In this document: positions 5,404-43,734 of the stretch, piece after piece | Position numbering within the stretch: position 1 is the first letter of the stretch | Layout of the letters: the number at the start of each line of letters is the position of its first letter | DNA from: Tumidithrix helvetica PCC 7403 | Lineage (GTDB): Bacteria; Cyanobacteriota; Cyanobacteriia; Pseudanabaenales; Pseudanabaenaceae | DNA: 64,000 bases | Direction of reading: 5' to 3' | NCBI RefSeq assembly: GCF_965232925.1 | Contig: NZ_CBDDRA010000001.1 | Location: 64,001-128,000, forward strand | Made by a program: the position numbers and the translations under genes | The notes under the pieces: model-generated | Told to the model about the DNA's origin: nothing | Seen by the model: only the letters and a program-made list of their open reading frames with translations | Database searches by the model: none

Positions 5404-7572
5404 TTAATTTTTCCCAGAGACATTTAGCCTAGAAGACTGCAACTGACCGATCTGTTGCTGTACTTGAGGTGCATAGATGCGCAAGTAATTCCAATAGTTG
5501 CTAAATACCCGTTCCACATACCCTCTGGTTTCCTCATAGGGAATGTTATTGACGAACTCATCAGGATCGCCTAGTCCCCGACTTTCTACCCATCGCCCGA
5601 TCGCCCCAGGTCCCGCATTATAACTAGCTACCGCCAGCATGGAATTATTGCCGTTGCGCTGGTGGGTATAGTCCAAATACCAAGTACCAAAATTGATATT
5701 GTCTTCAGGGTTGCTGAGCGAATAGCCCTTTACACCCTTCTTACTAGCAATCCATTCACCCGTATCAGGCATAATCTGCATCAAGCCTACTGCCCCCGAT
5801 CGCGAAAGAATCTGTGCTTCAAACCGCGATTCTTGCCGCATTAGACCCAATACTAACGCAGGAGGAAGTCTTCGTTCCTGCGACCAATTTGCGACTTGAT
5901 TCCAATAGGGGAAAGGATAGAGGCTCTGCCAATAGATCGGCTGTTGCTGCAAAATTTTAATTTCGGCGCGTTCGGCAGCACTGACATCGATCGTATCAAG
6001 GCTCTCTAACTTACGAATACCCTGAAGGTTGTCATTCACCCCAACCCGAATTACACCATCCGTAAAGATTTCCCTTGGGGTCAAGCTGCGTTTGCCTCTC
6101 GTCTCAAACTGCCAGCGATCGCTGGCATCCTGATTCATCCCCAAGATATATAGTTCTTGGAACTGCGCTGAGCCTGCGGGTAAGCCCGTGCGAATGCTAG
6201 GGAGGCTGAGTGGAAGATTGATATTTCGAGCCGTGGTAAAGTCTCCCACTTGCCAGCCTAAATAACTTGCCGATCGCCAAGCGAAATAAGAATCTGGGTG
6301 CTTGCGAATGGCAAATTCAAACAACTGTCGCGAAGCGTTGCGATCGCTGATGCGAGTTGCCCATTTTCCACCCCAAAAACTTGCTTCTGCCGCGATCGCA
6401 CTGTCGGGAGCATTATTCGTTAAAATCTGAACGGAAGCGATCGCCTGCTTGAGATTCCCCGCATTGGCATGACCTTTGGCAATGCGCCAGTAGATCTCTC
6501 CTGCTTCGTTGGTGTTGGGAAAGCGACTTAACAAGAGATTTCTCGCCACACTCGCCGCCTGCGGACTGCCCAGTTTATCTTGCAGCAAATCGGCTTTTTC
6601 GATCAGCGCTTCTGCTGCCGTATCGGGATAGCTTGCCACAATCCGATCTGCAACAGTCACCGCTTGACTGGGGTCAGCAATTTGCATAATCCGAATTAAA
6701 GCTCTTGGTGCTTCAGGACTTTGAGCATATTGCTGGGCGACGCGATTGTAAGCTCCTAGAGCTGCATCAATTTGTTTGCCGCGATGCAAACTACGTCCAA
6801 TACGATAAGCCGTAAAAGAGTTGGGTGTGGCTCTCAGATAGGCGTTGGCTGATTTTTGAAATTCAAAATTGTCGTAATAGGCATCTGCCACCGCCCACCA
6901 CTGATCTGGAGTTAGCCTTGCCCCACTATCGACGAGGCGATTGAGCAAAGGTACGATCTGCTTATAGTCATTGAAATAGAATGCCAAGTGAACCATTAGA
7001 TCGGTACGCTGAGGATTTTGACTTAAGCCTGACAGCGCTACACTGAGCGATCGCGGGTGAGAAGGAAATTTTTGTAATAGCTGTTGTGTTTGCCCCGTCA
7101 CAAACAGGGCTTCTGCGGCTACGGGACTATTGGCATAGTTGGTAAGAATCTGATTCCAAACGGCTTTGGCAGCATTACCATCTCTGGCTTGGGTAAATGC
7201 TTGCGCCCGTTTGAGCAGGACATATTCGGCTAATAGAGGATATTCTTTTTCTAAGCCTTCGAGGGCTGCGATCGCGGCACGAGGATTTTTATTGTCTAGG
7301 TAAAGATTGGCTAGGGTCAAGCGCGATCGGCTCCGCTCTAAGCTTGCCTCATTTGCCTTGGCTTTGAGTTCTAATTGCGCAATGCGTTGGTTGTAGGGTA
7401 AAAAGGTTAACGGGTCAAAGGGTTTGACATTGCCAAAATTGGTTAAACCTGTGGCACTGGCAGAGGCGTTGGGATTTAGCTCAGAGTTTAGATTTGTGGG
7501 TAAGGGGGCACTAGATCCTGCTAGTGTGGCACTTAGAGCGATCGCAATTGACCAATTCATGAATTTTTTCAT
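5404..7572 (-). CDS. Soluble lytic murein transglycosylase (TPR-like superhelical domain plus SLT catalytic domain)
   Basis: C-terminal LMRQESRFEAQILSRSGAVGLMQIMPDTG...SYNAGPG motifs. The likely start is MKKFMNWSIAIALSATLAGS at 7572 (signal peptide); the ORF track extends to 7611. Confidence 0.85.
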   Translation of the reverse strand: MKKFMNWSIAIALSATLAGSSAPLPTNLNSELNPNASASATGLTNFGNVKPFDPLTFLPYNQRIAQLELKAKANEASLERSRSRLTLANLYLDNKNPRAAIAALEGLEKEYPLLAEYVLLKRAQAFTQARDGNAAKAVWNQILTNYANSPVAAEALFVTGQTQQLLQKFPSHPRSLSVALSGLSQNPQRTDLMVHLAFYFNDYKQIVPLLNRLVDSGARLTPDQWWAVADAYYDNFEFQKSANAYLRATPNSFTAYRIGRSLHRGKQIDAALGAYNRVAQQYAQSPEAPRALIRIMQIADPSQAVTVADRIVASYPDTAAEALIEKADLLQDKLGSPQAASVARNLLLSRFPNTNEAGEIYWRIAKGHANAGNLKQAIASVQILTNNAPDSAIAAEASFWGGKWATRISDRNASRQLFEFAIRKHPDSYFAWRSASYLGWQVGDFTTARNINLPLSLPSIRTGLPAGSAQFQELYILGMNQDASDRWQFETRGKRSLTPREIFTDGVIRVGVNDNLQGIRKLESLDTIDVSAAERAEIKILQQQPIYWQSLYPFPYWNQVANWSQERRLPPALVLGLMRQESRFEAQILSRSGAVGLMQIMPDTGEWIASKKGVKGYSLSNPEDNINFGTWYLDYTHQRNGNNSMLAVASYNAGPGAIGRWVESRGLGDPDEFVNNIPYEETRGYVERVFSNYWNYLRIYAPQVQQQIGQLQSSRLNVSGKN

Positions 7573-7813
7573 CTCAATCCGTTTGTCTCGTGGGCGATCA
7601 TAGCACCACAATCAAGCCCCTTTATGAAGACTTGACGAATTTCTATGAATTCATCTGCCCCATGTCAATTCGTAGATAAAGCTGTAATTTTTTAAATCCG
7701 AAGTCAAAAATCTCCACGCCTGTATGAAAGCCTCCAGTATTTACGGTTATGCCCTCGCAAGATTCTTAGAGCGCGATTGAGCAGTCCGTGCCCCAGCAAC
7801 TTTTTCGAAACAC

Positions 7814-8233
7814 TCAATCCAAATCAGTAATGCTGGCTCTTAAGGCTTTAATTTCGCCACGCTTGGTTTTACGATCGAGCCGTCTGCTTTGAGCGCCGCG
7901 TGAGGGCTTGGTAGGTTTACGCTTTGTTGGCAAGATCGTCACACTTTGAATCAAGAGCTGGAGGCGTTTTAAGGCATCTTCTTTATTTTGTTCTTGGGTA
8001 CGGTGCTGTTGGGCCTTAATGATAATCACGCCATCTTTTGTGATGCGGCGATCGCTTAAATTCAACAGTCGTTCCTTGTAGATCGGCGATAGGGAGGATG
8101 CGTTGATATCGAAGCGCAAATGAATTGCCGTAGCGACCTTATTCACATTTTGACCGCCTGCCCCCTGCGATCGGATGGCGCTAATACTAATTTCCTCGAT
8201 CGCGAGGGCGGTGTTTTTGGTGATTTGGAGCAT
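7814..8233 (-). CDS. arfB: Alternative ribosome-rescue factor ArfB (peptidyl-tRNA hydrolase, GGQ family)
   Basis: 139 aa; GGQ motif in SQGAGGQNVNK; basic C-terminal tail. Confidence 0.85.
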   Translation of the reverse strand: MLQITKNTALAIEEISISAIRSQGAGGQNVNKVATAIHLRFDINASSLSPIYKERLLNLSDRRITKDGVIIIKAQQHRTQEQNKEDALKRLQLLIQSVTILPTKRKPTKPSRGAQSRRLDRKTKRGEIKALRASITDLD

Positions 8234-28258: not shown

Positions 28259-29182
28259 TCAATAGGCTGTGACGATCTCTAAAAGCTCGGCGGTGATCGC
28301 AGTTTGACGCTCTTGTTGATAGGCAATCGTAAATTCTGCAATGCGTTCCTCAATATTCTTCTCAGCAATTTGCATGGAGGCGAGGCGGCTGGCATTTTCG
28401 CTGGCGAGGGACTCGACAAAGGCGCGATAGAGAGAGATAAAGAAATATTGTCGCAATAGCGAAGCGAATAGCCGATCGCTGGACATGGTAAACGTGGGCA
28501 GCGATCGCGATTGCCATGTCTGTTGTGCGATCGTTTGCAACCATTGCCGATCGAGGGGCAAGAGTTGTAGTTTGCTGGGTTCGCTAAAGGTACTGGCATG
28601 GAGGCGGTTGTAAAACAGCAGGATGCGATCGATCCGATCGCGATCGCGCCAAGTTTCGATTTGAATCAACATTTCCTGTACCATCGGCGTAATCCCTACG
28701 AGGGAACTGGGCATCTCGAAGGTTTGGGCGATCGCAAAACCCGCAGTTTCTAAGGGAGGAATAATCCTTGTGCCTACGGTAAATATGGACAGGCGATCGG
28801 CTGCGATCTCTGTATGTTGAATTTCCGCGATCGCATAACGGGCAATCTGTTCGTTAAATTGTCCGCACATTCCCTGTTCCGAACCAAAGACAATCGCACC
28901 GCAGCGTTTGCTAGAAACTTGAGTCAGGGCGAAAGGCGTACTTTTAAGAGGTTCGCCGTTATTGCCATGCATGCCATTCGCTTGGATAAATCCCTGGGGA
29001 TGCATGGTTTTGAGAACGACATACAATCCCTTTTCGATGGTTTGGGTATATTCGCTCAGGGATGCCACCGCTTGCTCGTATTGATGGATATTGACTGCTG
29101 CCAGCACCTTCATCATTTTGACGACCGATCGCAGGTCGGTAGCCGTATGAATTTGGCGTTGCAGCGATTGAATGGAGGTCAT
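28259..29182 (-). CDS. atpG: N-ATPase (F-type) subunit gamma
   Basis: 307 aa; N-terminal [29 protein letters not shown] and a C-terminal coiled-coil helix. Last gene of the operon; its start overlaps atpA by 4 nt. Confidence 0.85.
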
Positions 29183-30723
29183 GGAGTTCCTCCTGTTTCT
29201 GAATTATGATTTGAATTACTGAGGCGATCGCGGACAACCCGCAACAGAGATGCGCGATCGCTTGCACTCAGAGCTTCACCCCGTTCGATCCGATCGCAGA
29301 GATCGGGTAATTGGGCTGCGACTGCTTGGGCGATCGCAGTTTCACACGCGCTAATTTGACCGATCGGAATGGCATCGAGCAACCCTTCGGTAACGGCAAG
29401 CAGAATAGCGATTTGGGTGGCGACGGGCATAGGCTTGTACTGCGGTTGTTTGAGTACTTCGCGCACGCGCCGCCCCCGTTCTAAGGCAAGGCGGGTCGAT
29501 TCTTCTAGGCGCGTACCAAAGCGCGAGAAAGCTTCGAGTTCTTCAAATTGCGAATAGGAGAGCCGTAATGCCCCTGCAACCGAACGATAGGCGGGTAGCT
29601 GGGTTTTACCACCGACACGGGAAACGGATTTGCCCACATCGATCGCGGGCAATACGCCTTTTTGAAATAGCCCAGGCGATAGGTAAATCTGTCCGTCCGT
29701 AATCGAAATCAGGTTGGTGGGAATATAGGCAGCCATGTTTTGGGCTTCGGTTTCCAAGATTGGCAGTGCAGTGAGCGAACCACCACCGAGATTGGGATGG
29801 AGATGGGTGGAGCGTTCTAGCAGGCGGGAGTGAATGTAGAAAATATCCCCAGGAAAGGCTTCGCGACCGGGGGGACGGCGCAACAGCAGCGAGAGTTCGC
29901 GATAGGCACGGGCATGGGTGGTGAGGTCGTCGTAAATAATCAGAACATCGCGCCCCTGTTCCATAAAGTATTCTGCCATGGTCGTTGCGGCATAGGGCGC
30001 GACGAACTGCAATCCGGGCGGTTCTTCACCCGCAGCCATGACAACGGTGGTATAGTCCATCGCGCCGTATTCTTCCAAATCCGCAATTAGTTTAGCAACG
30101 GCGGTGCTGCGCTGTCCGATCGCGCAATACATGCAGAGAACATTTTTGTCTTTTTGATTGACGATCGTATCGATCGCAAGGGCACTTTTTCCTGTTTGGC
30201 GATCGCCCAAAATCAATTCCCGCTGTCCGCGCCCGATCGGAATGAGGGCATCGATCGCCTTGATTCCCGTTTGCAGAGGCACATTCACAGGAGCGCGATC
30301 CATAATTGCAGGGGCATTGCGTTCGGCAGGACGACGCTGGGAAGTACGGATCGCGCCTTTGCCATCGAGGGGACGACCGAGGGGATCGATCACCCGTCCG
30401 AGAATCGTATCGCCCACGGGAACTTCTAAAACCTTGCCCGTGCGCCGTACCTCGAAGCCTGCCCTGAGGCGATCGCTGGCATCGAGCAGAATAATGCCGA
30501 CTTCATCGGGGTCGAGGTTAAACACCATGCCCAGAGTGCCACCTGCAAAGCGAACGATTTCTTCTGATTCCACATGGGGCAATCCCGTCACTTTGGCAAT
30601 GCCCTGTCCGATCGACTGCACGATGCCGATTTCCTGCGATCGCAGGTCGGGGGGATGGGCGTTGAGTACGCGATCGTAAAGGGAGAGTGTCTCGTTGAAA
30701 ATGGTTTGCAAGAGATTATCCAT
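29179..30723 (-). CDS. atpA: N-ATPase subunit alpha
   Basis: 514 aa; Walker A GDRQTGKS; alpha signature regions. Confidence 0.9.
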
Positions 30724-31627
30724 GCGCTGGCTCTACTCCTTCTGCATTAATTCCCTCGCTAATTTCTTCGCCTATTTCTTCACTGATTTCTTCGCCTATT
30801 TCTTCAACCAGAACAGAAGCTAAATTCTCTGCGATCGCATCGAGATAGGCTTCAATACTCCAAGTCAGTTTGTAGCCCCTGCCGCGCAGTTCGATACCAC
30901 AAATTAAATCGGGTTGGGTTTCGCAGTCCAAATCTAGATCGCCTAAATTCGCTGCATTCAAGTAATTCTGTAAGACCTGCGCGATCGCAGTGCGAATTGA
31001 TTCGGGCAATTCAAAGGCACTCACTAGGGTAAGGGCAATACTGCTCTGTTGCTCGGTTTGGGTTAAGGCAGTCACTAAGCCAATGCGATCGCGATCGGCA
31101 AGATTTTGCAAGCGTTGTAGGAATACCTTGGCGACCTGTGCCTCTAGGGTGACTTCTGCCAGATCCTTAAGCACCAACTGTACGGTTGCCTGTAACTGCT
31201 GCATCGTGCGATGGCGCACCTCCTGCAAAAACGCTTCTTTCTGTCGGCGCAGGCTTGCCTGCCACTGCGATCGCTCTACTGCCGCCGCATCGCGCACTTC
31301 CTGTAACAGCCTTTGGCGGGTTTGCTCGACCTCTGCCTGTGCTTGGGTGAGTAATTCCGCTTGTCTTGCCGCTAAGTCTGCTTGCATCTGTTGGTAATGG
31401 GCGACCTCCTGCTGTGCCTCCTGCTGCTTCTGCTCGGCGGAGTTTAAGCGATCGCGAATTGTTTGTTCGCGGCGTTCCATCGCTTTGACGATCGGCTTGT
31501 AAAGTAAGCGTTGCAGCACAAATACCAAAACAAAAAAGTTAACAATTTGCGCCGTAAAGGTAACCCAGTTAATTTCCACGCTTGTTACCCCCCTACTTTC
31601 GTAACGGCAGAAATCACGTAATTCCAA
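30716..31627 (-). CDS. atpF: N-ATPase subunit b, unusually long (303 aa), with a C-terminal extension and an EEIGEEIS tandem repeat
   Basis: Single N-terminal TM ([18 protein letters not shown]), a long coiled coil, then a roughly 120-aa C-terminal region. A GTG at 31579 preceded by AGGGGGG is an alternative start that would remove the 43-nt overlap with atpE. Confidence 0.75.
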
Positions 31628-31902
31628 AAGGGATTTGCAAAAATCAGGATCAGCGAGATCACAAAACAGTAAATCGCCACCGATTCGATAAAGGCAAGCC
31701 CCACAAACAGCGTGCGCGTAATCGTGTTGGCTTCGTCGGGTTGTTGGGCGATTGCGTTCAGGGCTTGGGCGATCGCTTTTCCTTCACCGAGGGCGGGTGC
31801 GATCGAGCCAATGGCAATGGTCAACCCCGCCGTTAAAATCGAAATCGTTCCCACAATCCAAACAGCCATAAAAATGGGATTGTTACTATCAAGATGCGTC
31901 AT
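31585..31902 (-). CDS. atpE: N-ATPase c subunit (proteolipid)
   Basis: Two-helix hairpin ...GEGKAIAQALNAIAQQPDEA...[28 protein letters not shown]. The start may be the internal ATG at 31869 (MAVWIVG...). Confidence 0.8.
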   Translation of the reverse strand: MTHLDSNNPIFMAVWIVGTISILTAGLTIAIGSIAPALGEGKAIAQALNAIAQQPDEANTITRTLFVGLAFIESVAIYCFVISLILIFANPFWNYVISAVTKVGG

Positions 31903-31993
31903 AATGCCCTTCCTTATTTGAGTCTAACCGTTTTAGATTTTGGATGCAGTAGAAAAAGAAGTAATTCCTTACAGTCTCCCCTCTGTCTGGGAA

Positions 31994-32659
31994 TCAATCC
32001 CCATGACTTGCCGAGCCGATGTATACCAATGCCAAAATCGCAAAGATATAGGCTTGAATGATCCCAGTGATTAAGCCCAGAAGCTGCATGATCGCAGGAA
32101 AGAAAAAAGGTGCGATCGCCAGTAATAGGGCGGCAATCATGCTTTCGCTCATGACGTTCCCGAATAGGCGAACGGCTAGGGCTAGGGTGCGAGAGAGTTC
32201 GCTAATAATGTGAAAAGGCAGCATAATCGGACTGGGTTTCAGGTATTGGCGCAGGTAATTCCCCAGCCCCTGTTGGCGAATCCCGAAAACAGGGACGGCA
32301 AAAAACACGCAAATAGCAAGAGCAGCCGTGGTGGAAAGCGATCCCGTGGGTGGGTGATAGAAAGGTACGATCGCCAGTAAATTCGACGTGGCAATGAAAA
32401 TAAACAGGGTTCCAATAAAGGGAAGATAGCGATCGGGTTCTTTGCCGCTGGTTTGACGAATTTGTTCTCGAACCGTACTCACCAAAACTTCTAAAAAATT
32501 TTGCCAGTGGCCGATTTCGACATCGCTAGAAAGCTTGCGCGTAATCGACCAAGAGCAGATTCCCAAAAGCAAAATAATTGCCCAAGTGAAGACCAACGTC
32601 GCATTGAGCGCGACATTCCCCCATTGCCAAAACACAATTGAATCGGGACTAATGTGCAT
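31994..32659 (-). CDS. atpB: N-ATPase a subunit
   Basis: 221 aa, 5-6 TM; the essential Arg in LSRTLALAVRLFGNVMS. Confidence 0.85.
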   Translation of the reverse strand: MHISPDSIVFWQWGNVALNATLVFTWAIILLLGICSWSITRKLSSDVEIGHWQNFLEVLVSTVREQIRQTSGKEPDRYLPFIGTLFIFIATSNLLAIVPFYHPPTGSLSTTAALAICVFFAVPVFGIRQQGLGNYLRQYLKPSPIMLPFHIISELSRTLALAVRLFGNVMSESMIAALLLAIAPFFFPAIMQLLGLITGIIQAYIFAILALVYIGSASHGD

Positions 32660-32959
32660 TTATCCTCCTCGTTTTGGTGCGATCGGTTGGAGTCGCTCGA
32701 TCGTACGATTGCGAATCCAAAAAAACATGCCCAAACAAGCGATTAAATGCAGGGGCGCATAGTCTTTGACGCAGAAAAGCAACAGAGAAAATCCCGCCAA
32801 CACAATCCCTAACCTTCCGAAAAAACTGCCTAGAGCTAAGAGGACGGGGGCGCGGGCTTTGGGCAATTTTCGCACCGTCACCCACAATCCACCAAAATAG
32901 ACCGTGCCTAGCACAGCACCTAAAATTAGCGTCAAGGGTAGAAAGAACAAACTAATCAT
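32660..32959 (-). CDS. atpR: N-ATPase accessory membrane subunit AtpR
   Basis: 99 aa, three TM helices with a conserved membrane Arg (WVTVRKLP). It sits between atpQ and atpB, as in N-atp operons. Confidence 0.65.
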   Translation of the reverse strand: MISLFFLPLTLILGAVLGTVYFGGLWVTVRKLPKARAPVLLALGSFFGRLGIVLAGFSLLLFCVKDYAPLHLIACLGMFFWIRNRTIERLQPIAPKRGG

Positions 32960-33362
32960 GTTTGACCTCCGTTTCAGAATTAGATTCGGGCTCGGAATCG
33001 GGCTCGGGCTCGGTTAATCGGTCTAGGGGAGCTTGCGATCGCACCATGCGCTCTTGCTCTTGGGCAACCCACTGCCAAGCCACCAAGCAACCCAGCGTCA
33101 AGCCGCCCAACATCAGTGCCAAAGTCCAAGACATCTGACTGGGAAACTGGCGATCGATCCACATGCCCAGCGCCATGCCTAAGAGCGTGGGCGCGACTAC
33201 CGACCAACCGACCAAACCTGCAAAACCCAGACCAAACCAAACGCCCCCAAAGGGTTGGGTTTGACGGGCGTGTAATTTGCGCTGTTCCTTGGTGGCGATC
33301 GCTTCCGTAAAGACATGGGCAGGCGATCGGGCTTTGCGCCGCGAAGATTGAGGGGATTTCAT
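32952..33362 (-). CDS. atpQ: N-ATPase accessory subunit AtpQ (AtpZ/AtpI-like, ATPase gene-1 family)
   Basis: 136 aa; the FGGVWFGLGFAGLVGWSVVAPTLLGMALGMWIDRQFP...WTLALMLGGLTLGCLVAWQWV two-TM core typical of the AtpZ/AtpI family. I chose this frame over the overlapping 32980..33372 ORF. Confidence 0.65.
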   Translation of the reverse strand: MKSPQSSRRKARSPAHVFTEAIATKEQRKLHARQTQPFGGVWFGLGFAGLVGWSVVAPTLLGMALGMWIDRQFPSQMSWTLALMLGGLTLGCLVAWQWVAQEQERMVRSQAPLDRLTEPEPDSEPESNSETEVKHD

Positions 33363-33748
33363 AAAAATTCACCTAACTCGATAAAACGTCGAATCGTGCT
33401 GATTTCGAGTTTTGCCAATACCGATCGCGCTGTTTTTTCGCGATCGCTGAAAGCCCGAAATTGTTGGGCGATCGTTTGTCGCAACATTCCTAGATCCTCC
33501 CCCTTAGCCGCGTGTTGGGTCGAAATTGTAACGGTATCTTCTTGTTTAATTAAAATTCCTTCATCAACTGCCCAAAACTGTTCTTTTCCTTCCTCGGGAA
33601 TAAACGAAAGCAAACTCGGTACCAGTATCGCTACAAAGTCCACATGGCGCGGCAGCAGACAAAACGAACCATTCTCGGCTTCGGCAACGACTTTGCTGAC
33701 TTCCGTTTCCAGCAAAATCTTGGTAGGTAAGATAATTTTGAGCAGCAT
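33359..33748 (-). CDS. atpC: N-ATPase subunit epsilon
   Basis: 129 aa; N-terminal beta-sandwich (LKIILPTKILLETEVSKV) and a C-terminal helical hairpin. Confidence 0.8.
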   Translation of the reverse strand: MLLKIILPTKILLETEVSKVVAEAENGSFCLLPRHVDFVAILVPSLLSFIPEEGKEQFWAVDEGILIKQEDTVTISTQHAAKGEDLGMLRQTIAQQFRAFSDREKTARSVLAKLEISTIRRFIELGEFL

Positions 33749-33759
33749 GACACACCACT

Positions 33760-35166
<1,407 letters not shown>

Positions 35167-35474: not shown

Positions 35475-36137
35475 TCATAACACGATTAGTTTGCGCCGCA
35501 CGGCTTCCATGCAGAGGGCAACGCGGGTACTGGTATTGTTTTCATCGAGATAATCGATTCCCAGTTTTGCCTTTAGCCGTTGAATGGAATTTTGAGCGGT
35601 TTTTAAGGAAATGTTCATGCGTTGAGCGATCGCTTTGTCTGTGAGCGCTTCCCGCCCCAATAGGTTTAGAACTTCTGTCTCGCGTTCGTCTAGATCGATA
35701 TCGTGGCGCAGTTCTCTGGGAATCTCTAGTTTGCCCTCTAGGGCATGTTTGACCCCCTCTAAATAGGCTTTGCGACGTTCGAGTTTGCTGACCACAACAA
35801 ATCCGCCTTTGTGGCGACCGAGCAATTTACTCAGCGGTTTTAAATATCTGTACTCGCTGGTATAAATCAGAACATTCAACATCGGGTAGCCCTGAAAAAT
35901 CTGGCGCAACAGTTCTAAACAGGGTTGCGCCGATTGTTCGCCCGTCGATGTCCCAAATAGCAAATCGACAATAATTAGGTCGGGGATCTCTAGCTTGAGT
36001 CGTTCTAGAGCCTCAGCAGGCGCGTGAGCTATCTCACATATCGCTTCTGGATGAAGTTTTTGTAAAAATAGGCAGTTGTTTTGAGCGACTTCGGGATGAT
36101 CTTCGAGAATTAAAAATAGAGGTGGTCGAGAATCCAT
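35475..36137 (-). CDS. Response regulator, NarL/FixJ family (REC plus LuxR-type HTH)
   Basis: 220 aa; receiver Asp in DLIIVDLLFG; C-terminal LuxR HTH ETEVLNLLGREALTDKAIAQRMNISLKTAQNSIQRLKAKLG. Confidence 0.85.
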   Translation of the reverse strand: MDSRPPLFLILEDHPEVAQNNCLFLQKLHPEAICEIAHAPAEALERLKLEIPDLIIVDLLFGTSTGEQSAQPCLELLRQIFQGYPMLNVLIYTSEYRYLKPLSKLLGRHKGGFVVVSKLERRKAYLEGVKHALEGKLEIPRELRHDIDLDERETEVLNLLGREALTDKAIAQRMNISLKTAQNSIQRLKAKLGIDYLDENNTSTRVALCMEAVRRKLIVL

Positions 36138-36251: not shown

Positions 36252-38168
36252 TTAATTAAAGGCAATTTCCCAAGAAAGCTGCACTCTTAAGCCCCCCTCT
36301 TGTAAGGCGACGCATTCAAATAAGCCATCGGGTAGCTCTGTCGCGATCGTTGCCATAAATTTCATCCCATAGCCTCCCTGCATTCTCAAATTTGTCGGGC
36401 TCTCAAAGGTTGCGGGATCAAGTTGTGAACCATCATTCTCGATCGCCAGCGAACAATACCTATCTTGCTGACTCAGAATCACCTTAACCTGCGTAGCCTT
36501 GCCATGGGGTGGTTGAGCGTGGATCGTGACATTGGTAATCGCCTCAATAAAAAAACGATAAATATCCTCGCGGGCTGCTAGCCAGAGGCTATTGAGTTCG
36601 GGTTCGTCGAGGGGTTGGATGTCTTGAATGACGCTGAGGGTGAGTTCTCTAGAATTGATGAGTTGGTACAGTTTCGCTTCTATGCCAGCAGCCAATCCTG
36701 CTTTCAATTTGGGCGTGAGTTGCAGCGCGATCGCACGAGTTTGATTTAACTGCTGGCGCAGGTGCTGCCCCATGCTTGCCAAGCGATCTAGAATGGGGTC
36801 GAGTTTGGATGCCGTTCCGTTTACTTGCAACATTTCTAGGCGATCCATCACGAGTTTTAGTTCTTGGAGCGGCCCTTGGTGAATATTGGCGGCGAGGCGA
36901 TGCAGCGTTTTTTGGGCTTGTGCGAGAATTGCTGCTTGTTCGATATTGTGTAGGCGATCGATTTCGCACTGTTGCTGGTAGATCAGATCTTTTTGGATGC
37001 CCAAGCGTAAGGAAATAAATACAGATATTGCGGTTGCACCCCAAACGCAGAGGGGAAAGGGTACGGGTAGAATCCAGCCTTGACTAAATAGCAGCAGCCC
37101 GAGTAGACCAAACCCACCCAGCCCAAAGATTGGACTGAGCCAATAGCGGTATCGTCTTCTCAAATTCCTGCTCAGTTTTCCATAGATAATCCATGCAGCG
37201 ATCGCGACGCCACCCCAAACAATGAGAGCATTTTGAATCCATAATGGCACGATGCGATAAAAAGAGTTGGTCAGCAAACTTGCCAGCAGATTGGCTTGCA
37301 GCTCGACCGCAGGCATGAGTTCGCCAAACGGCGATCGAATTGCAAAGGCATCGGGGTTAGAAGTATCTGTAAAGCCGATCGAGACAATTTTATTGCGAAC
37401 CTGTGCCAGCAATGGACTATTGCTTAAAATCGATTCCGCCTTGAGTCTAGGGAAGGTTCCCGTCGCTCCCCAGAAACGGATCTGAATGGGGGATGGGGAA
37501 GGAAACTGCTCTCGAACTTGGGGATTGAATTTCTTGAGGCTGAGTAGAGCGGCGGAGTCGAGTGTTTCTGGGCGATCTAGATTATGGGAGAGCGTGAATT
37601 CTCCTGACAAATTTGCCTGACGCGCTGTGCTTTTAGAACCAAAGGGATGTTTGGCTTCTGGCTCGAATTCGGAAAATCCTACAATCGATCTGGGCGAAAA
37701 TAGAGGGTTCCCTCGATCGGTTGAGGGAAGAAAGTATTCGTAACTTCGCCATTCTATGGGATTTGACTGACTGGCACTGGAAGTGGGAATGACAACGACG
37801 ATCCGAGAGGTATTTTCTTGAACTAAGGTTTTGATGGGATGATTAGCATGATCTGAGGTCTGCACCCAGTTGGGCATTAGGTTAAGAACGACGACCGATG
37901 CATCTGCGTCGAGAATCCGCTTGACTAATGAGGTATAAACTATCGGCTCTTTGTCTAGTCCCCAACTTCTCAAGTCAGAATCGGTAATGGGGACGAGCAA
38001 AATCTCTGGGGGAGGCGTGCTGGGATGGCTCAGATAGATAAGGCGATCCTGTAGAGACAGGTCGAGTTGTTGAATGACAGGAAGATCGAAGAGAATTAGA
38101 CTCCACAAAAGGCTCCAGCCTATTCCCAGCCAGAGGGCAGTGCGTTGCCATGCTTTACGGAGTGTCAT
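36252..38168 (-). CDS. CHASE2-domain sensor histidine kinase (HisKA_3/HATPase_c)
   Basis: 638 aa; N-terminal TM plus a CHASE2-like extracytoplasmic domain, three further TM helices, an H-box ANIHQGPLQELK (NarX/LiaS type) and a C-terminal HATPase_c. Confidence 0.8.
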   Translation of the reverse strand: MTLRKAWQRTALWLGIGWSLLWSLILFDLPVIQQLDLSLQDRLIYLSHPSTPPPEILLVPITDSDLRSWGLDKEPIVYTSLVKRILDADASVVVLNLMPNWVQTSDHANHPIKTLVQENTSRIVVVIPTSSASQSNPIEWRSYEYFLPSTDRGNPLFSPRSIVGFSEFEPEAKHPFGSKSTARQANLSGEFTLSHNLDRPETLDSAALLSLKKFNPQVREQFPSPSPIQIRFWGATGTFPRLKAESILSNSPLLAQVRNKIVSIGFTDTSNPDAFAIRSPFGELMPAVELQANLLASLLTNSFYRIVPLWIQNALIVWGGVAIAAWIIYGKLSRNLRRRYRYWLSPIFGLGGFGLLGLLLFSQGWILPVPFPLCVWGATAISVFISLRLGIQKDLIYQQQCEIDRLHNIEQAAILAQAQKTLHRLAANIHQGPLQELKLVMDRLEMLQVNGTASKLDPILDRLASMGQHLRQQLNQTRAIALQLTPKLKAGLAAGIEAKLYQLINSRELTLSVIQDIQPLDEPELNSLWLAAREDIYRFFIEAITNVTIHAQPPHGKATQVKVILSQQDRYCSLAIENDGSQLDPATFESPTNLRMQGGYGMKFMATIATELPDGLFECVALQEGGLRVQLSWEIAFN

Positions 38169-38237: not shown

Positions 38238-40703
38238 CTACGGCTTCTCAAAGATTACTCCCCATCCTGTACCTTTTCCATCAACTTCCCATCGAGGTCC
38301 CCAATTTTTCTTGCTGTAAAGCATATAGCGTCCATCTTCGTTAGATGTATAGCCACCATTGACTAAATCTGCTTCACCATAGGGATCCATGAAATAATAT
38401 GCGTTTCTATCTGCTTTGCACCCAACAACTAGGCACCAGTGACCACCCGTAGGACTATCAACAGAACCATGATGATTCCATCCAACTGCTATGGGGAACC
38501 CTTGTGCAAGTTGCTCATCTAGATCTTTAAAACTCAGGTCTTGTCTATAATGGGCAGTAATTCCATAGCTTTTTAGGGCTTCAACTTGTGCAGTAGGTTC
38601 AGTTGTATCCCCATATTTGAGAACAGTTGCTAGGTATGTATCATCAGCATTTTCCCCACTTAATGCTTCGGGTCGTAAATACTTTAATGCCATAGCACAG
38701 GTACTTGAAAAGCACATGCGCTGGGCATTGGGAGTTGTAGAATCTAATTGGCTATAGTACTGTACATTTAGTTTGATTTCCCGATTAAGATCAGCATTAT
38801 CTCTAGCATTTTCTTGTAGAGGCTTCGGGGATGTGCCTTCTAATTTACTTAGACCTTGCTGCCAAAGATCGCCTTCTGCACTTCGCCTCCTCCTCAAGCC
38901 TTCTTCTACATTAGAGCCAGGATTAACATACAGCATGAGTGCTTTGGGTACATAATGCCATCGCTTATCTCTTAGACAAGCTGTAATTGTATGGAAGCCA
39001 TCATCGCCATAAAAATACGCTCCTAGATTATAGGCAAAACTGCACAAAGCAGAACGCATATCATCATGCATCTCATTCCAGTAGGGGATCTTTTTTTGGA
39101 GGATATCCCAAAAGTTTTTCTCAAGATTAATGGCAAGGTATTCATCTGCTTCCACTTGAGAAATACAATCGTTCTTTCCAACTTTTTTCCCATCAGGATA
39201 GACTGTAGTCCCCCAACCAATTGTCCAAGGTTCGCCGTTAGTTTTAGGATCTGGATAAGCAGATAGTTCGCAACCTTCAAATTCTTTAATGAGCTTAACT
39301 GCTTGCAAGGGCACACCGCTTACCCTTTTAGTAGCTTCGGCTGAGACTTGAGGCAACTTGGGCGTTACTTCCTTAAGATTTTCAGTAGTTGGTATAGTCA
39401 GAGTAAGAACACTGGTTATCGCGGCATCTGACTGCTGAGATGAGTTGGTGATTGAGGATTGCTGTGCAGAAGGAGTTAGTTGTATCAACGGACTTGGGAA
39501 TATACTATTGAGTAAGGCTAAAGCCTTACTTTGCTGTCTAAGCCAGTCCTGATTTTGGGTGAGCCAATCTTTTATAGGAATCTCTACCCCATCGCTCTCA
39601 TACTCTCTAAGAGTCTTTTCTAGTCCTTTATTGTGGTCAACAGCAACTAAGTCCCGCAAAATTTCTTCCCTTCCTTGAGAAGCCCTATTTGTGTTCTCTC
39701 CTGCTTGTTTGGCAAGTTTGATTCTAGCGATCGCTCTGTAAAGTTCGTATTTCCAAGAATCTTCTCTGATCGATGAACCTCGAAGTTCAATTGCGCGATC
39801 GAGGTTGGAGATAGCATCTGCTAAAAGGGGAGGTTCTGACTCAATATAGGCATAAACTAGCTGAGCCAGATAATCAGGTTGATTGTCATCACTCTCTACA
39901 AGAGCTTTAAAAATAGGAATAGTCCTCTGACTCCGAAGTCTAAATGCAGAAGCTTTAGAGCGCTGAGCCGCTCGACGAGCATCGCTGGCACGGTAAAAAA
40001 TAAGTTCTTTGTCTTCAAGATCGGCTTTTTGAATTTTCTTTTGGAGATCTGATAACTCAGGCTCAGTCAGTCCGTTTTGAATTTGGCGATTGACAAGCAC
40101 AAGTAGATCCTTTCCTTCGGCTATTTGCTCTTTCTCTGCGTTAGCTTGCTTAGCATCTCTTTGGGCTAAATCAGCTCGCTCAATCAGTTCAAGTTGCTTT
40201 TTGAGTAACGCATTTAGGATGAGTTGACCACCGTAGCCGCCAACCAGTCCGGTCACAAAGACTTTAATTCCGCTGTTAATGCCACTTAGGTATTCAGTTG
40301 GTACAAAAACATAGGCAATAAATGCACCGCTTATGCCAATGAAGATTTCTCCCAAAAATCCAGGCTTAAGACCAGTGTCATCTTCACTCCAAGAAGGTAA
40401 ATCTAACTGACCATGTATCAAGATAGTGTGAAGAATTGCTCCCAGTGTTCCTGCTAGTGTGAGACTTAGATAGAGAGGATTTGCCTTGTTTAGCCATCCT
40501 AATAAATATGGCATACCTGAAACAGCATCTTCCGATGGATTTGTATGGCTGATAAGCTTGGCGAAGCCCAAAGCCATGAAAATCCCCAAACTAAACATCA
40601 AAATAAAATACAAAAATCTTAAGAGTCTTGGGAAAAATCTACGTCTCGTTCCGTTCATAAATTTAGGTTCCACTAGTTGGAAAGTTAGTGTGTTCGCAGA
40701 CAC
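38238..40703 (-). CDS. Multidomain membrane-anchored cell-wall hydrolase: four N-terminal TM helices, a long coiled-coil/helical linker, a GH24 phage-type lysozyme domain and a C-terminal C39-like cysteine peptidase domain
   Basis: 821 aa. TM helices at roughly residues 25-175. Lysozyme motif LIKEFEGCELSAYPDPKTNGEPWTIGWGTTVYP. C-terminal Cys/His pair in MCFSSTCAMALKYL ... GGHWCLVVGC. Confidence 0.7.
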   Translation of the reverse strand: MSANTLTFQLVEPKFMNGTRRRFFPRLLRFLYFILMFSLGIFMALGFAKLISHTNPSEDAVSGMPYLLGWLNKANPLYLSLTLAGTLGAILHTILIHGQLDLPSWSEDDTGLKPGFLGEIFIGISGAFIAYVFVPTEYLSGINSGIKVFVTGLVGGYGGQLILNALLKKQLELIERADLAQRDAKQANAEKEQIAEGKDLLVLVNRQIQNGLTEPELSDLQKKIQKADLEDKELIFYRASDARRAAQRSKASAFRLRSQRTIPIFKALVESDDNQPDYLAQLVYAYIESEPPLLADAISNLDRAIELRGSSIREDSWKYELYRAIARIKLAKQAGENTNRASQGREEILRDLVAVDHNKGLEKTLREYESDGVEIPIKDWLTQNQDWLRQQSKALALLNSIFPSPLIQLTPSAQQSSITNSSQQSDAAITSVLTLTIPTTENLKEVTPKLPQVSAEATKRVSGVPLQAVKLIKEFEGCELSAYPDPKTNGEPWTIGWGTTVYPDGKKVGKNDCISQVEADEYLAINLEKNFWDILQKKIPYWNEMHDDMRSALCSFAYNLGAYFYGDDGFHTITACLRDKRWHYVPKALMLYVNPGSNVEEGLRRRRSAEGDLWQQGLSKLEGTSPKPLQENARDNADLNREIKLNVQYYSQLDSTTPNAQRMCFSSTCAMALKYLRPEALSGENADDTYLATVLKYGDTTEPTAQVEALKSYGITAHYRQDLSFKDLDEQLAQGFPIAVGWNHHGSVDSPTGGHWCLVVGCKADRNAYYFMDPYGEADLVNGGYTSNEDGRYMLYSKKNWGPRWEVDGKGTGWGVIFEKP

Positions 40704-40967: not shown

Positions 40968-41267
40968 ATGAATCCACTGGATATAGTTTTTCGGATACTA
41001 GGTGACACAGATGAATTTATAAGTAAAGTGAATCAGGCTTGTGCCGATAAGGGGCTACCTCCAGCATTGCCGGGGAATACAGATTATCGCTTTGAAGGGT
41101 TTGGTGTTGCTTTTATAGGGTTTAAGCCTTATCTAACATTTTGGCTGCATTACAAGCCAGATAGTCCGCAACATATAGCGTTCGATAGGTTTGAAATTCC
41201 TATTAGTTACGCTCAATCATTGCATTTAGTTGCAGATTTGGGACATCCCGCAAATGCAACTGGATGA
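40968..41267 (+). CDS. Hypothetical protein
   Basis: The ORF track begins at a TTG (40953). The first ATG (MNPLDIV...) is at 40968, with GAGGA 8 nt upstream. No recognisable motif. Confidence 0.45.
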   Translation: MNPLDIVFRILGDTDEFISKVNQACADKGLPPALPGNTDYRFEGFGVAFIGFKPYLTFWLHYKPDSPQHIAFDRFEIPISYAQSLHLVADLGHPANATG

Positions 41268-42382: not shown

Positions 42383-42480
42383 AACATGGCATCTTTTTAC
42401 AATTTGTTAACCTTTACAAGCGAATTCATCAGAAATCTAGAACACAATTGAATCTTGAAAAAATAGTTAAAGAGGTATTT

Positions 42481-43734
42481 ATGAGTTGGCAAGATTTTAT
42501 AAAAGCAGTGGCAGAAGCTGACTTTGAGTTTGAGTGGCAGCGTCCATTAATCATTGCTCAATCTATTTTGGAAAGTGGCAGAGGGACAACAGATCTAAGC
42601 CGTTATAAAAACATGAACGGCATGAAATATCGAAAATCAATAGCGATTTCTGGTGCTGAAAAATTCTGGTATAAAACTGACAGTGAACCAGATCCACCAG
42701 GTGGCGATTGGTTTTTCGCATTTGACACCTATAGAACAGGAATAGATACTTGGAAAAAATTCTACTTCCGTAAAGATGGCGATTGGATTCCTTATCCCAA
42801 AGTCTATGAACGCGATCCTAAAATCTTAGAAGACGCTCGTTCTTTTCTAGACTACATTGGAAAGATTTATTGTCCTCATTTTGAGGATTCTCATGACGTT
42901 AGCTATGCAGACTACATCATGAATCGATGCTATCCAGAAGCACAAAAACTTTTGCGAGAGATTGCTGGAGAAGAATTTATGTTATTGCAAGTAGGTAGTC
43001 AAGGTTCACAAGTTGGACAATTACAAGCTAAACTCAATGAACTTGGCTTTAATTGCGGTAAGGTTGACGAGATTTTTGGCTCCAAAACCAAACAGGCTGT
43101 TGAAAATTTCCAAAGGGAGCATTTGGGGCAAGCTGAAGTAACTGGAATAGTTGATGAACGAACTTGGAATCAAATTATAAATCATCCTTCTGTTCGCCTA
43201 GCTTCTGTTTTAATCGATCCAGGGCATTCTCCTATTCATTCGGGTACTGATGCAAAAGACGGAACTCCTGAGTATGATATGAATCTTTTGCAAGCTAAAA
43301 TTGTGAAAGCAGAACTGGATAAGGCAAATATTTCAGCCGAGATTTTCGATCCAGCAAGCGATCCACTTAGTCTTATTGGGCAAAAGGCGACAGGTCGTTC
43401 CATGTTTCTCAGTTTGCATCACAATGCTACAGACAGAAAACCTCACTACACCTGTGTAATGGTTCACCCAACAAAAGCCAAAGCACGATCAATCGCTTTT
43501 GCTAAAAAACTTTCAACTGCGGTGGCTAATGCGATCGGACAAGAGGATTTCGGTGTAATGAAACGTGGTGTAACCGTTCTCTCTGAGTCTGAAAACACAA
43601 ATTGTCCGATTTGCGTTCTATGTGAGAGCTATTTTTTAGATGCAATTGATACGCGAGAAGAAGCTGAAAAACTATCTACTAAAGCGGCTTATGCGATCGC
43701 ATCAACGGTTATTGCTGAGCTACAAACCGCATAA
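42481..43734 (+). CDS. Bifunctional peptidoglycan hydrolase: GH73 glucosaminidase, PG-binding domain and Amidase_3 (N-acetylmuramoyl-L-alanine amidase)
   Basis: GH73 motif IIAQSILESGRGTT...NMNGMKY; PG_binding_1-like LQVGSQGSQVGQLQAKLNELGF...VDERTW; amidase motifs LIDPGHS and LSLHHNA. Real start is the ATG at 42481 (AGAGG SD); the track's 42448 is a TTG. No signal peptide. Confidence 0.8.
   Translation: MSWQDFIKAVAEADFEFEWQRPLIIAQSILESGRGTTDLSRYKNMNGMKYRKSIAISGAEKFWYKTDSEPDPPGGDWFFAFDTYRTGIDTWKKFYFRKDGDWIPYPKVYERDPKILEDARSFLDYIGKIYCPHFEDSHDVSYADYIMNRCYPEAQKLLREIAGEEFMLLQVGSQGSQVGQLQAKLNELGFNCGKVDEIFGSKTKQAVENFQREHLGQAEVTGIVDERTWNQIINHPSVRLASVLIDPGHSPIHSGTDAKDGTPEYDMNLLQAKIVKAELDKANISAEIFDPASDPLSLIGQKATGRSMFLSLHHNATDRKPHYTCVMVHPTKAKARSIAFAKKLSTAVANAIGQEDFGVMKRGVTVLSESENTNCPICVLCESYFLDAIDTREEAEKLSTKAAYAIASTVIAELQTA

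Follow-up and report, generated by a model that had tools for sequence, protein, structure and literature searches.

A cellular membrane module fused to exchangeable, cyanophage-type lytic heads in Tumidithrix helvetica PCC 7403: a possible built-in lysis device

The present analysis concerns a 64,000-nucleotide stretch of the genome of the cyanobacterium Tumidithrix helvetica PCC 7403 (contig NZ_CBDDRA010000001.1, positions 64,001 to 128,000 of the forward strand; hereafter the window) and, within it, a minus-strand gene whose predicted product of 821 amino acids (aa) carries four N-terminal transmembrane (TM) segments, a long helical region, and two C-terminal heads, a GH24 muramidase and a C39-like cysteine peptidase. 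As judged by its homologues, the protein is a modular lysin or polymorphic effector built on an uncharacterized membrane module, the lytic heads of which have been exchanged between alleles. The protein has the appearance of a lysis device built into the cell rather than of a wall enzyme with a housekeeping role, and the reading that we favor, with a probability of roughly 0.4, is that of a one-piece, membrane-anchored, and self-contained accessory lysis effector that would work on holin-endolysin logic.

Anatomy of the fusion protein

An earlier annotation of the window made from its letters alone (the sequence-only reading) had proposed an 821-aa open reading frame (ORF) at 38238-40703, and the frame computed from the sequence is genuine, lying on the minus strand and opening with GTG. 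Its product is on record, under a shorter gene model, as a hypothetical protein of T. helvetica PCC 7403; the GenBank model (TUMEXPCC7403_00470, 779 aa; window 40575-40703 region) begins at M43, inside the first TM segment (TM1), which it halves. Homologues place the N-terminus of the protein at least 27 residues before M43, and because they keep the motif MNESRRKF ahead of TM1, translation likely starts at GTG-1 or ATG-16 rather than at M43. Scans for promoter-like sites (9 against 7.1 expected from shuffled controls) and terminator-like sites (2 against 2.8 expected) were uninformative, given that neither count exceeded that of the controls. The parts of the gene and its product are as follows, with the evidence for each in brackets.

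38238..40703, minus strand: full ORF, 821 aa from GTG (homologue N-termini favor codon 1 or 16)
40656-40658, minus strand: alternative start ATG, codon 16 (homologue N-termini)
40554..40625, minus strand: TM1, aa 27-50 (hydropathy, family alignment)
40203..40475, minus strand: glycine-zipper three-TM domain, aa 77-167, DUF4257-like and YeaQ/YmgE-like (Pfam match below cut-off, invariant Gly columns)
40077..40202, minus strand: stalk helix, aa 168-209, continuous with TM4 (single helix in the AlphaFold2 [AF2] model, model residues 129-194 = aa 144-209)
39501..40064, minus strand: TPR-like all-helical domain, aa 214-401 (AF2 predicted local distance difference test [pLDDT] about 90; conservation)
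39318..39500, minus strand: low-complexity Ser/Thr/Gln/Pro linker, aa 402-462, with the head junction inside it (pLDDT below 50, disordered)
38874..39287, minus strand: GH24 phage-type muramidase head, aa 473-610 (Pfam match, T4 lysozyme alignment)
39276-39278, 39249-39251, and 39222-39224, minus strand: predicted GH24 catalytic residues E476, D485, and T494 (alignment)
38241..38786, minus strand: C39-like papain-fold cysteine peptidase head, aa 640-821, Pfam match 645-775 (Pfam, alignments)
38712-38714, 38439-38441, and 38385-38387, minus strand: predicted C39-like catalytic residues C664, H755, and D773 (alignment)

Hydropathy located four hydrophobic segments (aa 27-50, 77-98, 113-135, and 146-167), in agreement with the four N-terminal TM helices of the sequence-only reading, the fourth (TM4) being weakly hydrophobic (mean Kyte-Doolittle value about 1.3) and Gly-rich. 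TM1 is a signal-anchor that follows a basic N-terminus and ends in a conserved ALGFA, which could serve as a signal-peptidase site. The other three segments form a glycine-zipper domain that holds a conserved LxLPSW loop and a near-invariant GLVGGYGG motif in TM4. Pfam DUF4257 (PF14074) matched this domain over aa 84-163 (profile positions 8-79 of 81, E 2.5e-4 to 7e-4) at 20.2-21.7 bits against a cut-off of 27; the match recurs in relatives at 17-28 bits, one of which (P0137) reaches the cut-off, and JGI labels the Microcystis homologues COG2261 (YeaQ/YmgE).

In the AF2 model of the N-terminal half (pLDDT 77 overall), TM1 and the three-helix membrane domain are followed by a helix of ~65 residues that runs from TM4 into a compact TPR-like domain, and the stalk part of this helix is probably a coiled coil. 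No other part of the module is as widely conserved as the TPR-like domain; a Foldseek search of the PDB with the N-terminal module returned only generic, weak TPR matches with E above 0.02. The region that had been described as a ~300-aa helical or coiled-coil linker is indeed helical, but it is not a passive linker: the stalk helix and the TPR-like domain are 40-50% identical between genera and make up the conserved core of the family, a point that had been overlooked, and the linker proper is limited to aa ~402-462.

Both heads that the sequence-only reading had recognized lie above their Pfam cut-offs. The first, which has a lysozyme fold, matched Phage_lysozyme (PF00959) at aa 473-610 over the entire profile (E 1e-19, 71.6 bits against a cut-off of 22.3) and PDB lysozymes at E 2e-12, and its E476, D485, and T494 align with T4 lysozyme E11, D20, and T26, with a 3-residue insertion ahead of the catalytic Thr that phage homologues have too. 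The second, which has a papain-like fold, matched Peptidase_C39_2 (PF13529) at aa 645-775 (profile positions 1-143 of 143, E 6e-10, 40.4 bits against a cut-off of 24), with a weaker overlapping match to Peptidase_C70 (27 bits against a cut-off of 19); PDB entries 9jdd and 9jg8 (“Peptidase C39-like domain-containing protein”) match it weakly, and our literature search found no paper describing either entry. The catalytic triad comprises C664, which is the first Cys in CFSSTC, H755 in GGHWC, and D773 in DPYG, all invariant in the family and in cyanophage endolysin homologues except for D/N at position 773, while the second Cys of CFSSTC is not conserved. Fold-level statements only were drawn from the AF2 model of the C-terminal half, the confidence of which is moderate (pLDDT 61). 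Substitution of the catalytic residues, which had been named in advance as the mark of an inactive pseudo-enzyme, was not found, all six being intact. By these matches both heads are unexceptional within their families, GH24 and the C39-like papain clan; the GH24 head is predicted to cut glycan as a muramidase, and cleavage of the peptide stem by the C39-like head is suggested by its co-occurrence with GH24 in phage genes annotated as endolysins.

Endolysins of T4-like Synechococcus phages, including S-PM2, S-SRM01, ACG-2014f, and DSL-LC02/03, share 43-50% identity with the GH24+C39 cassette over 90-99% of its length, and the cassette matches PHROG endolysin families (PHROG 10051 and 3617, E 3e-70 and 5e-83). 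On this similarity the cassette is classed as a cyanophage-type endolysin, a likeness that the sequence-only reading had missed while identifying the enzyme domains correctly. A protein from a metagenome-assembled genome (MAG) of Stenomitos rutilans (P0054) carries the same cassette behind a different multi-TM N-terminus (aa 1-190), which contains hydrophobic segments, a GYYFGSS motif, and a phrog_1544 match (E 9e-18); here a membrane module and this lysin cassette were joined independently, in a case parallel to the lysis effector proposed for the window. The lysins of DSL-LC03 (L013 1336-2777) and S-PM2 (L012 1327-2022) share an unannotated N-terminal segment of ~50 aa (DLHNFFK.YDE.NP.H..AV..LE..L) that precedes either a C39 or a GH24 domain and that the host fusion proteins do not have.

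Exchange of heads on a widespread module

An exhaustive profile search with the N-terminal module recovered 1,291 cluster representatives at E<=1e-3 and 853 at E<=1e-10. From aa ~16 to 430, proteins of Tumidithrix, Microcystis, Crocosphaera, and Spirulina with unrelated C-termini are 40-50% identical. Long fusions account for about 40 representatives, of which all those with a traced source are cyanobacterial, and the fusion architecture is kept in at least six cyanobacterial lineages. Among 37 non-redundant fusion representatives there were M15 (12), SLT (11), GH24 (8), MACPF (6), C39_2 (6), GH19 (5), and M23 (1) heads, every one of them wall-lytic or pore-forming and some accompanied by PG_binding and Jacalin modules.

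Alignments at the DNA level revealed how these heads are distributed. Between the window and a locus with SLT and M15 heads (L006), identity is 85% as far as codon ~427, counted from the start codon (window 40710-39423); it disappears altogether in the head region, and similarity returns downstream. The identity between L006 and L008 breaks at the same site. The break falls at codon ~407-427, about nucleotide 39423, and the modules of the exchanging alleles are about 85-90% identical. At a single Microcystis chromosomal locus the allele is C39-headed or GH19+M15-headed, depending on the strain. Heads are, in these alignments, swapped as cassettes at a fixed junction at codon ~427, and with at least seven types of lytic head on one module, the preference of the sequence-only reading for an effector-like architecture over a housekeeping autolysin was borne out. 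Four Microcystis homologues (P0007, P0016, P0036, and P0067) also carry, at about aa 430-650 between module and heads, one to three repeats of ~70 aa (consensus APPNT.IKAT..TYLKKQPIDSS.L...EKKEVP.G..YK.LK.S...DGH.LVELDYG.G.WY.WSDHW.LPW) that have no Pfam match and do not occur in the window protein; each repeat is probably an SH3-like wall-binding domain.

The majority of the family is headless. These proteins are complete ORFs of ~320-430 aa that consist of the TM domain and the helical domain only, and they were found in Chloroflexota, Bacteroidota, Cyanobacteria, Proteobacteria, Acidobacteriota, Planctomycetota, Spirochaetota, and archaeal MAGs, with no conserved operon partner (the best candidate occurred in 5/34 loci). 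Public names of members are limited to “hypothetical” or “DUF4257 domain-containing”, the latter given by NCBI to one stand-alone member. Neither a PHROG match nor a relative among 2.9 million scanned viral contigs was found for the module, and its distribution argues that it is cellular, not viral. In the literature searched, we found no description of the module, of its fusions, or of the gene pairing described below.

Topology was read from charges (the positive-inside rule) over 82 fusion members as well as stand-alone members. The N-terminus of the family is basic (K+R 3.5 vs D+E 0.4), loop 1, with a length of 10 to 46 residues, alone contains Cys pairs (20/82 members), loop 2 is basic and loop 3 nearly uncharged in the stand-alone members, and the stalk after TM4 is of balanced charge (K+R 6.4 vs D+E 6.7). 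This pattern gives an in/out/in/out/in arrangement, from which we infer that the stalk, the TPR-like domain, and the heads are cytoplasmic (C-in), provided that TM4 spans the membrane. The alignment of TM4 with the third helix of DUF4257 supports a spanning TM4; were it not to span, the heads would be periplasmic.

In Microcystis, Spirulina, and Crocosphaera, the family gene is preceded, at 80-110 bp and on the same strand, by a flotillin-sized SPFH/Band_7 gene, and these partners are 36-44% identical to one another. The partner is absent in four other lineages, and none was found near the 34 stand-alone module loci. The SPFH proteins (L001/L002/L004/L005 about 6250-7900, L003 1-1118, and L010 5923-7923) form a family of 500-690 aa, dedicated to the lysin family in these three cyanobacterial genera, with an N-terminal TM segment, a long Glu/Lys-rich coiled coil, and a conserved C-terminal SNIY.FP.G.GE..N.LM.STSGM motif; two assemblies disagree on a Thr/Pro/Gln repeat expansion in the Crocosphaera copy.

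The locus and its neighbors

A locus in a close relative (L054) is syntenic with the window on both sides (70% aa identity in the regulator, 56% in the C-terminal half of the kinase, and 75-78% DNA identity in the small ORF and the alpha/beta-hydrolase), yet it is without the lysin gene and without the CHASE2 half of the kinase. By this comparison the lysin gene is an accessory presence/absence element that is dispensable in a close relative. In the window, the GC content at 38-46 kb is 0.36-0.43 against 0.47-0.55 in the flanks, and the low-GC stretch could be a horizontally acquired or variable island. It holds the lysin gene, a 99-aa ORF, the alpha/beta-hydrolase gene, a second peptidoglycan (PG) hydrolase gene, two ORFs without a significant Pfam match (264 aa, no match; 137 aa, a weak match to DUF6438 below the cut-off), and the start of an astacin-like metallopeptidase gene. 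In three lineages, CHAT, nSTAND, caspase-like C14, NACHT, restriction-modification, and toxin-antitoxin genes lie within a few kb of the family gene.

The 99-aa ORF (40968-41267, plus strand) had been put forward, speculatively, as a cognate modulator or immunity protein. It is 95% identical between loci with unrelated heads, has no signal peptide, no TM segment, and no Pfam match, and stays beside the alpha/beta-hydrolase gene at L054, where the lysin is missing. Because it does not co-vary with the head and persists at the lysin-less locus, we do not regard it as a cognate immunity gene, and the proposal was abandoned. Elsewhere in the family, tandem paralogues stand 7-90 bp apart, leaving no room for immunity genes, and the small ORFs downstream of the Microcystis genes are unrelated to one another (13% identity) and, judged from their translations, are probably not genes. 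The small orphan family of the 99-aa ORF (also L051 7874-8305, L052 1620-1937, and L054 7001-7315) is marked by the motifs KVNQxC..., D(F/Y)RFEGFG, and LTFWxxYK, and its members usually lie just upstream of an alpha/beta-hydrolase gene (Hydrolase_4 in the window, Tle1-like in L052); a weak residual link with the lysins is seen at L051, where a 36%-identical homologue directly follows a distant tandem pair of lysin-family genes.

A second multi-domain PG hydrolase gene (42448-43734, plus strand) lies 1.7 kb from the lysin gene. It encodes 428 aa that include Glucosaminidase-like, PG_binding_1, and Amidase_3 domains; neither a signal peptide nor a TM segment is obvious in this product, which gives it an endolysin-like look, and the gene is not conserved beside family members elsewhere. 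On the other side, 70 bp downstream of the lysin gene and on the same strand, are genes for a CHASE2 histidine kinase (36252-38168, minus strand) and a LuxR/GerE response regulator (35475-36137, minus strand). Since the kinase is without its CHASE2 half in both L006 and L054, the CHASE2 sensor appears to be gained or lost together with the lysin region; a MACPF-headed relative (L015) also adjoins a pair of HisKA_3 kinase and GerE regulator genes. Just downstream of the two-component system is a complete alternative F-type ATPase operon (28259-35151, minus strand) with genes for beta, epsilon, ATPase_gene1/AtpR-like, a, b, alpha, and gamma in N-ATPase-like order, and a Crocosphaera family member is the immediate neighbor of an N-ATPase-like operon (AtpR, a, c, b, alpha; L010/L011 1150-5776), a proximity that may be coincidence or linkage.

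Candidate functions and comparison with known systems

In the lysis effector that we favor, the module would retain the endolysin at the cytoplasmic face of the membrane, out of reach of the peptidoglycan, with the stalk helix possibly oligomerizing. A trigger sensed or relayed by the TPR-like domain would cause the module to permeabilize or reorganize the membrane in a holin-like manner, a step that the flotillin-like SPFH partner may restrain in other genera. The heads could then reach the wall, where the GH24 head would cut the glycan strand and the C39-like head the peptide stem, and lysis would follow; the outcome might be regulated autolysis, altruistic death, or abortive infection. We infer three of these steps, namely that the module permeabilizes the membrane, that a trigger sets it off, and that the cell thereby lyses itself. 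A lysis effector would explain the lack of immunity genes, the purely lytic heads (MACPF included), the turnover of heads, and the accessory, conflict-gene-rich context, and the absent immunity gene fits protection by compartmentation, as with endolysins.

Several points weigh against this assignment. The SH3-like repeats, PG_binding_1 domains, Jacalin lectin domains, and MACPF heads of the relatives are typical of extracytoplasmic proteins, and the weak hydrophobicity and Gly-richness of TM4 leave the topology in doubt. Because headless versions of the module are widespread and solitary, its primary role may be one other than lysis. The DUF4257 match of the window protein falls below the Pfam cut-off, and our literature search retrieved no holin activity for the DUF4257 family. 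A tblastn search of the 64-kb window with four SPFH partner sequences found no such partner there. PADLOC-DB 2.0 contains no match for the lysin protein, the SPFH partner, the 99-aa ORF, or the alpha/beta-hydrolase, and the proximity of STAND and CHAT genes may be due to chance, given how common such genes are in filamentous cyanobacteria.

The heads might instead lie outside the cytoplasm. If TM4 does not span, or if the topology is inverted or dynamic, the protein could be an extracytoplasmic tethered hydrolase that acts as an autolysin or remodeler of its own sacculus or of that of a touching neighbor, an arrangement suited by a TM4 that is the least hydrophobic segment and is Gly-rich like the anchors of the signal-anchor-release (SAR) type, by a stalk whose balanced charge is not clearly cytoplasmic, by relatives with domains typical of exported proteins (SH3-like repeats, PG_binding_1, and Jacalin), and by the other multi-domain PG hydrolase 1.7 kb away. 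We nevertheless consider a tethered hydrolase unlikely, if still a serious candidate, since the three-TM domain aligns end to end with DUF4257, TM4 included, the clearer charge patterns of the stand-alone members give in/out/in/out/in, and in P0212 an unrelated four-TM anchor before the same helical domain also predicts, as read from its sequence, a cytoplasmic C-terminus. An unregulated double lysin or MACPF protein in the cell's own periplasm would moreover be hazardous without an inhibitor gene, MACPF heads are at odds with wall remodeling, and the lysin gene is dispensable in a close relative. The septal or nanopore PG-remodeling enzyme that the sequence-only reading had offered as an option was set aside on similar grounds, the heads being predicted to be cytoplasmic, 6/37 representatives bearing MACPF heads, and the gene being accessory.

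A constant N-terminus with cassette-exchanged lytic C-termini at one locus is, on the other hand, a hallmark of polymorphic toxins, and the protein could be an antibacterial toxin of the bacteriolysin or bacteriocin type, in which the module would serve trafficking or release and the variable heads would kill competing cyanobacteria. Release could occur through lysis of the producer, through cleavage of the linker, whose Ser/Thr/Pro-rich junction might be a processing site, or through an unknown export route. This we judge rather improbable: no adjacent immunity gene co-varies with the head, Pfam detected no secretion-associated N-terminal domain, four TM segments speak against a diffusible toxin, most module-bearing proteins are without a toxin head, and the module-head architecture is not listed in a comprehensive survey of polymorphic toxins (Zhang et al. 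2012, Biol Direct 7:18, PMC3482391). There is very little chance that the gene is an inert remnant, that is, a cyanophage endolysin gene fused by accident to a host membrane-protein gene and devoid of selected function. The cassette is clearly of cyanophage type, the GC content of the region is lower than that of its flanks, and the gene is missing in a relative, as such a remnant would have it, but all six catalytic residues are intact, the fusion architecture occurs in at least six cyanobacterial lineages (about 40 representatives at 50% identity), heads have been renewed repeatedly at the same junction, and no phage structural genes lie nearby.

The lysis-effector reading can be extended into a broader joint claim that is speculative and, taken as a whole, doubtful: that these proteins constitute an undescribed class of chromosomal programmed-lysis machines in cyanobacteria, bloom-forming Microcystis among them, with a glycine-zipper gate, a cytoplasmic TPR-like sensor, exchangeable lytic warheads in the form of cyanophage-derived peptidoglycan hydrolases or MACPF pore-formers, SPFH caging in some lineages, and altruistic death (abortive infection, bloom collapse) as the result, the headless module being the ancestral membrane-permeabilizing effector. 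If the module does gate a built-in lysin, cyanobacteria would have a genetic basis for regulated lysis that is not a phage, with a bearing on the collapse of Microcystis blooms, toxin release, and phage defense, and a large orphan family (1,291 cluster representatives) would gain a function. The head-swapping family is also a natural catalogue of lysins for the cyanobacterial wall (GH24, GH19, SLT, M15, M23, and C39), and through the SPFH pairing one could test whether a flotillin controls a specific client. Even on a conservative reading, a host membrane protein has domesticated a cyanophage endolysin cassette and a truncated public gene model is corrected.

Among known systems, the T4-like cyanophage endolysins (e.g., the S-PM2 d153/d154 region and two DSL-LC03 “endolysin” genes) have the same GH24 and C39-like Cys-His-Asp modules as the window cassette, with the motifs EFEGC..AYPD, R.C.SS, GGH, and DPYG in common. 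In the phages these modules are soluble and often encoded by two adjacent genes or in reverse order, behind a phage-specific N-terminal segment, whereas in the window a cellular membrane module of 425 aa precedes them in one fusion, and the chromosomal setting is not that of a phage and has no adjacent holin gene. Holin-endolysin cassettes and SAR endolysins resemble the proposed effector in that a muralytic enzyme is kept from the wall, or kept inactive, by membrane compartmentation until a membrane event occurs, and SAR endolysins share with the window protein Gly-rich, weakly hydrophobic TM segments. Holin and lysin are normally separate proteins, however, and would here be combined in one predicted fusion, and SAR endolysins have a single N-terminal TM segment directly before a periplasmic catalytic domain, unlike the four TM segments, the predicted cytoplasmic heads, and the roughly 460 aa (TM segments, stalk, TPR-like domain, and linker) that precede those heads in the window protein. 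Because of its context and anatomy, the protein is therefore neither a canonical nor a SAR endolysin: the former was ruled out by neighbors that comprise a two-component system, the N-ATPase operon, and hydrolases, with no phage structural genes, and the latter by the four TM segments and the approximately 300 structured residues plus linker before the heads.

Polymorphic toxin systems combine a constant N-terminus with a C-terminal effector exchanged by recombination at a fixed junction and varying between strains at one locus, as is the case here. They also have a cognate immunity gene and a recognized trafficking domain, neither of which was found (for domains of the type V, VI, and VII secretion systems and others, there was no Pfam or NCBIfam match even at E<=10), and on these two counts the family falls outside such systems; their heads are nucleases, deaminases, or similar, unlike the wall- or membrane-lytic heads of the present family. 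The pairing of an SPFH gene with a membrane-protein gene recalls SPFH/flotillin operons of the NfeD-SPFH and HflKC-FtsH types, although the partner here is not NfeD and the pairing is absent in the window. The membrane domain itself resembles DUF4257 and GlsB-YeaQ-YmgE (“transglycosylase-associated”, COG2261) stress membrane proteins, which TCDB lists as putative holins (family 1.E.43). Its three-TM glycine zipper aligns nearly end to end, at a score below the Pfam cut-off, with these stand-alone proteins of about 80-90 aa, to which the window family adds TM1, the stalk, and the TPR-like domain.

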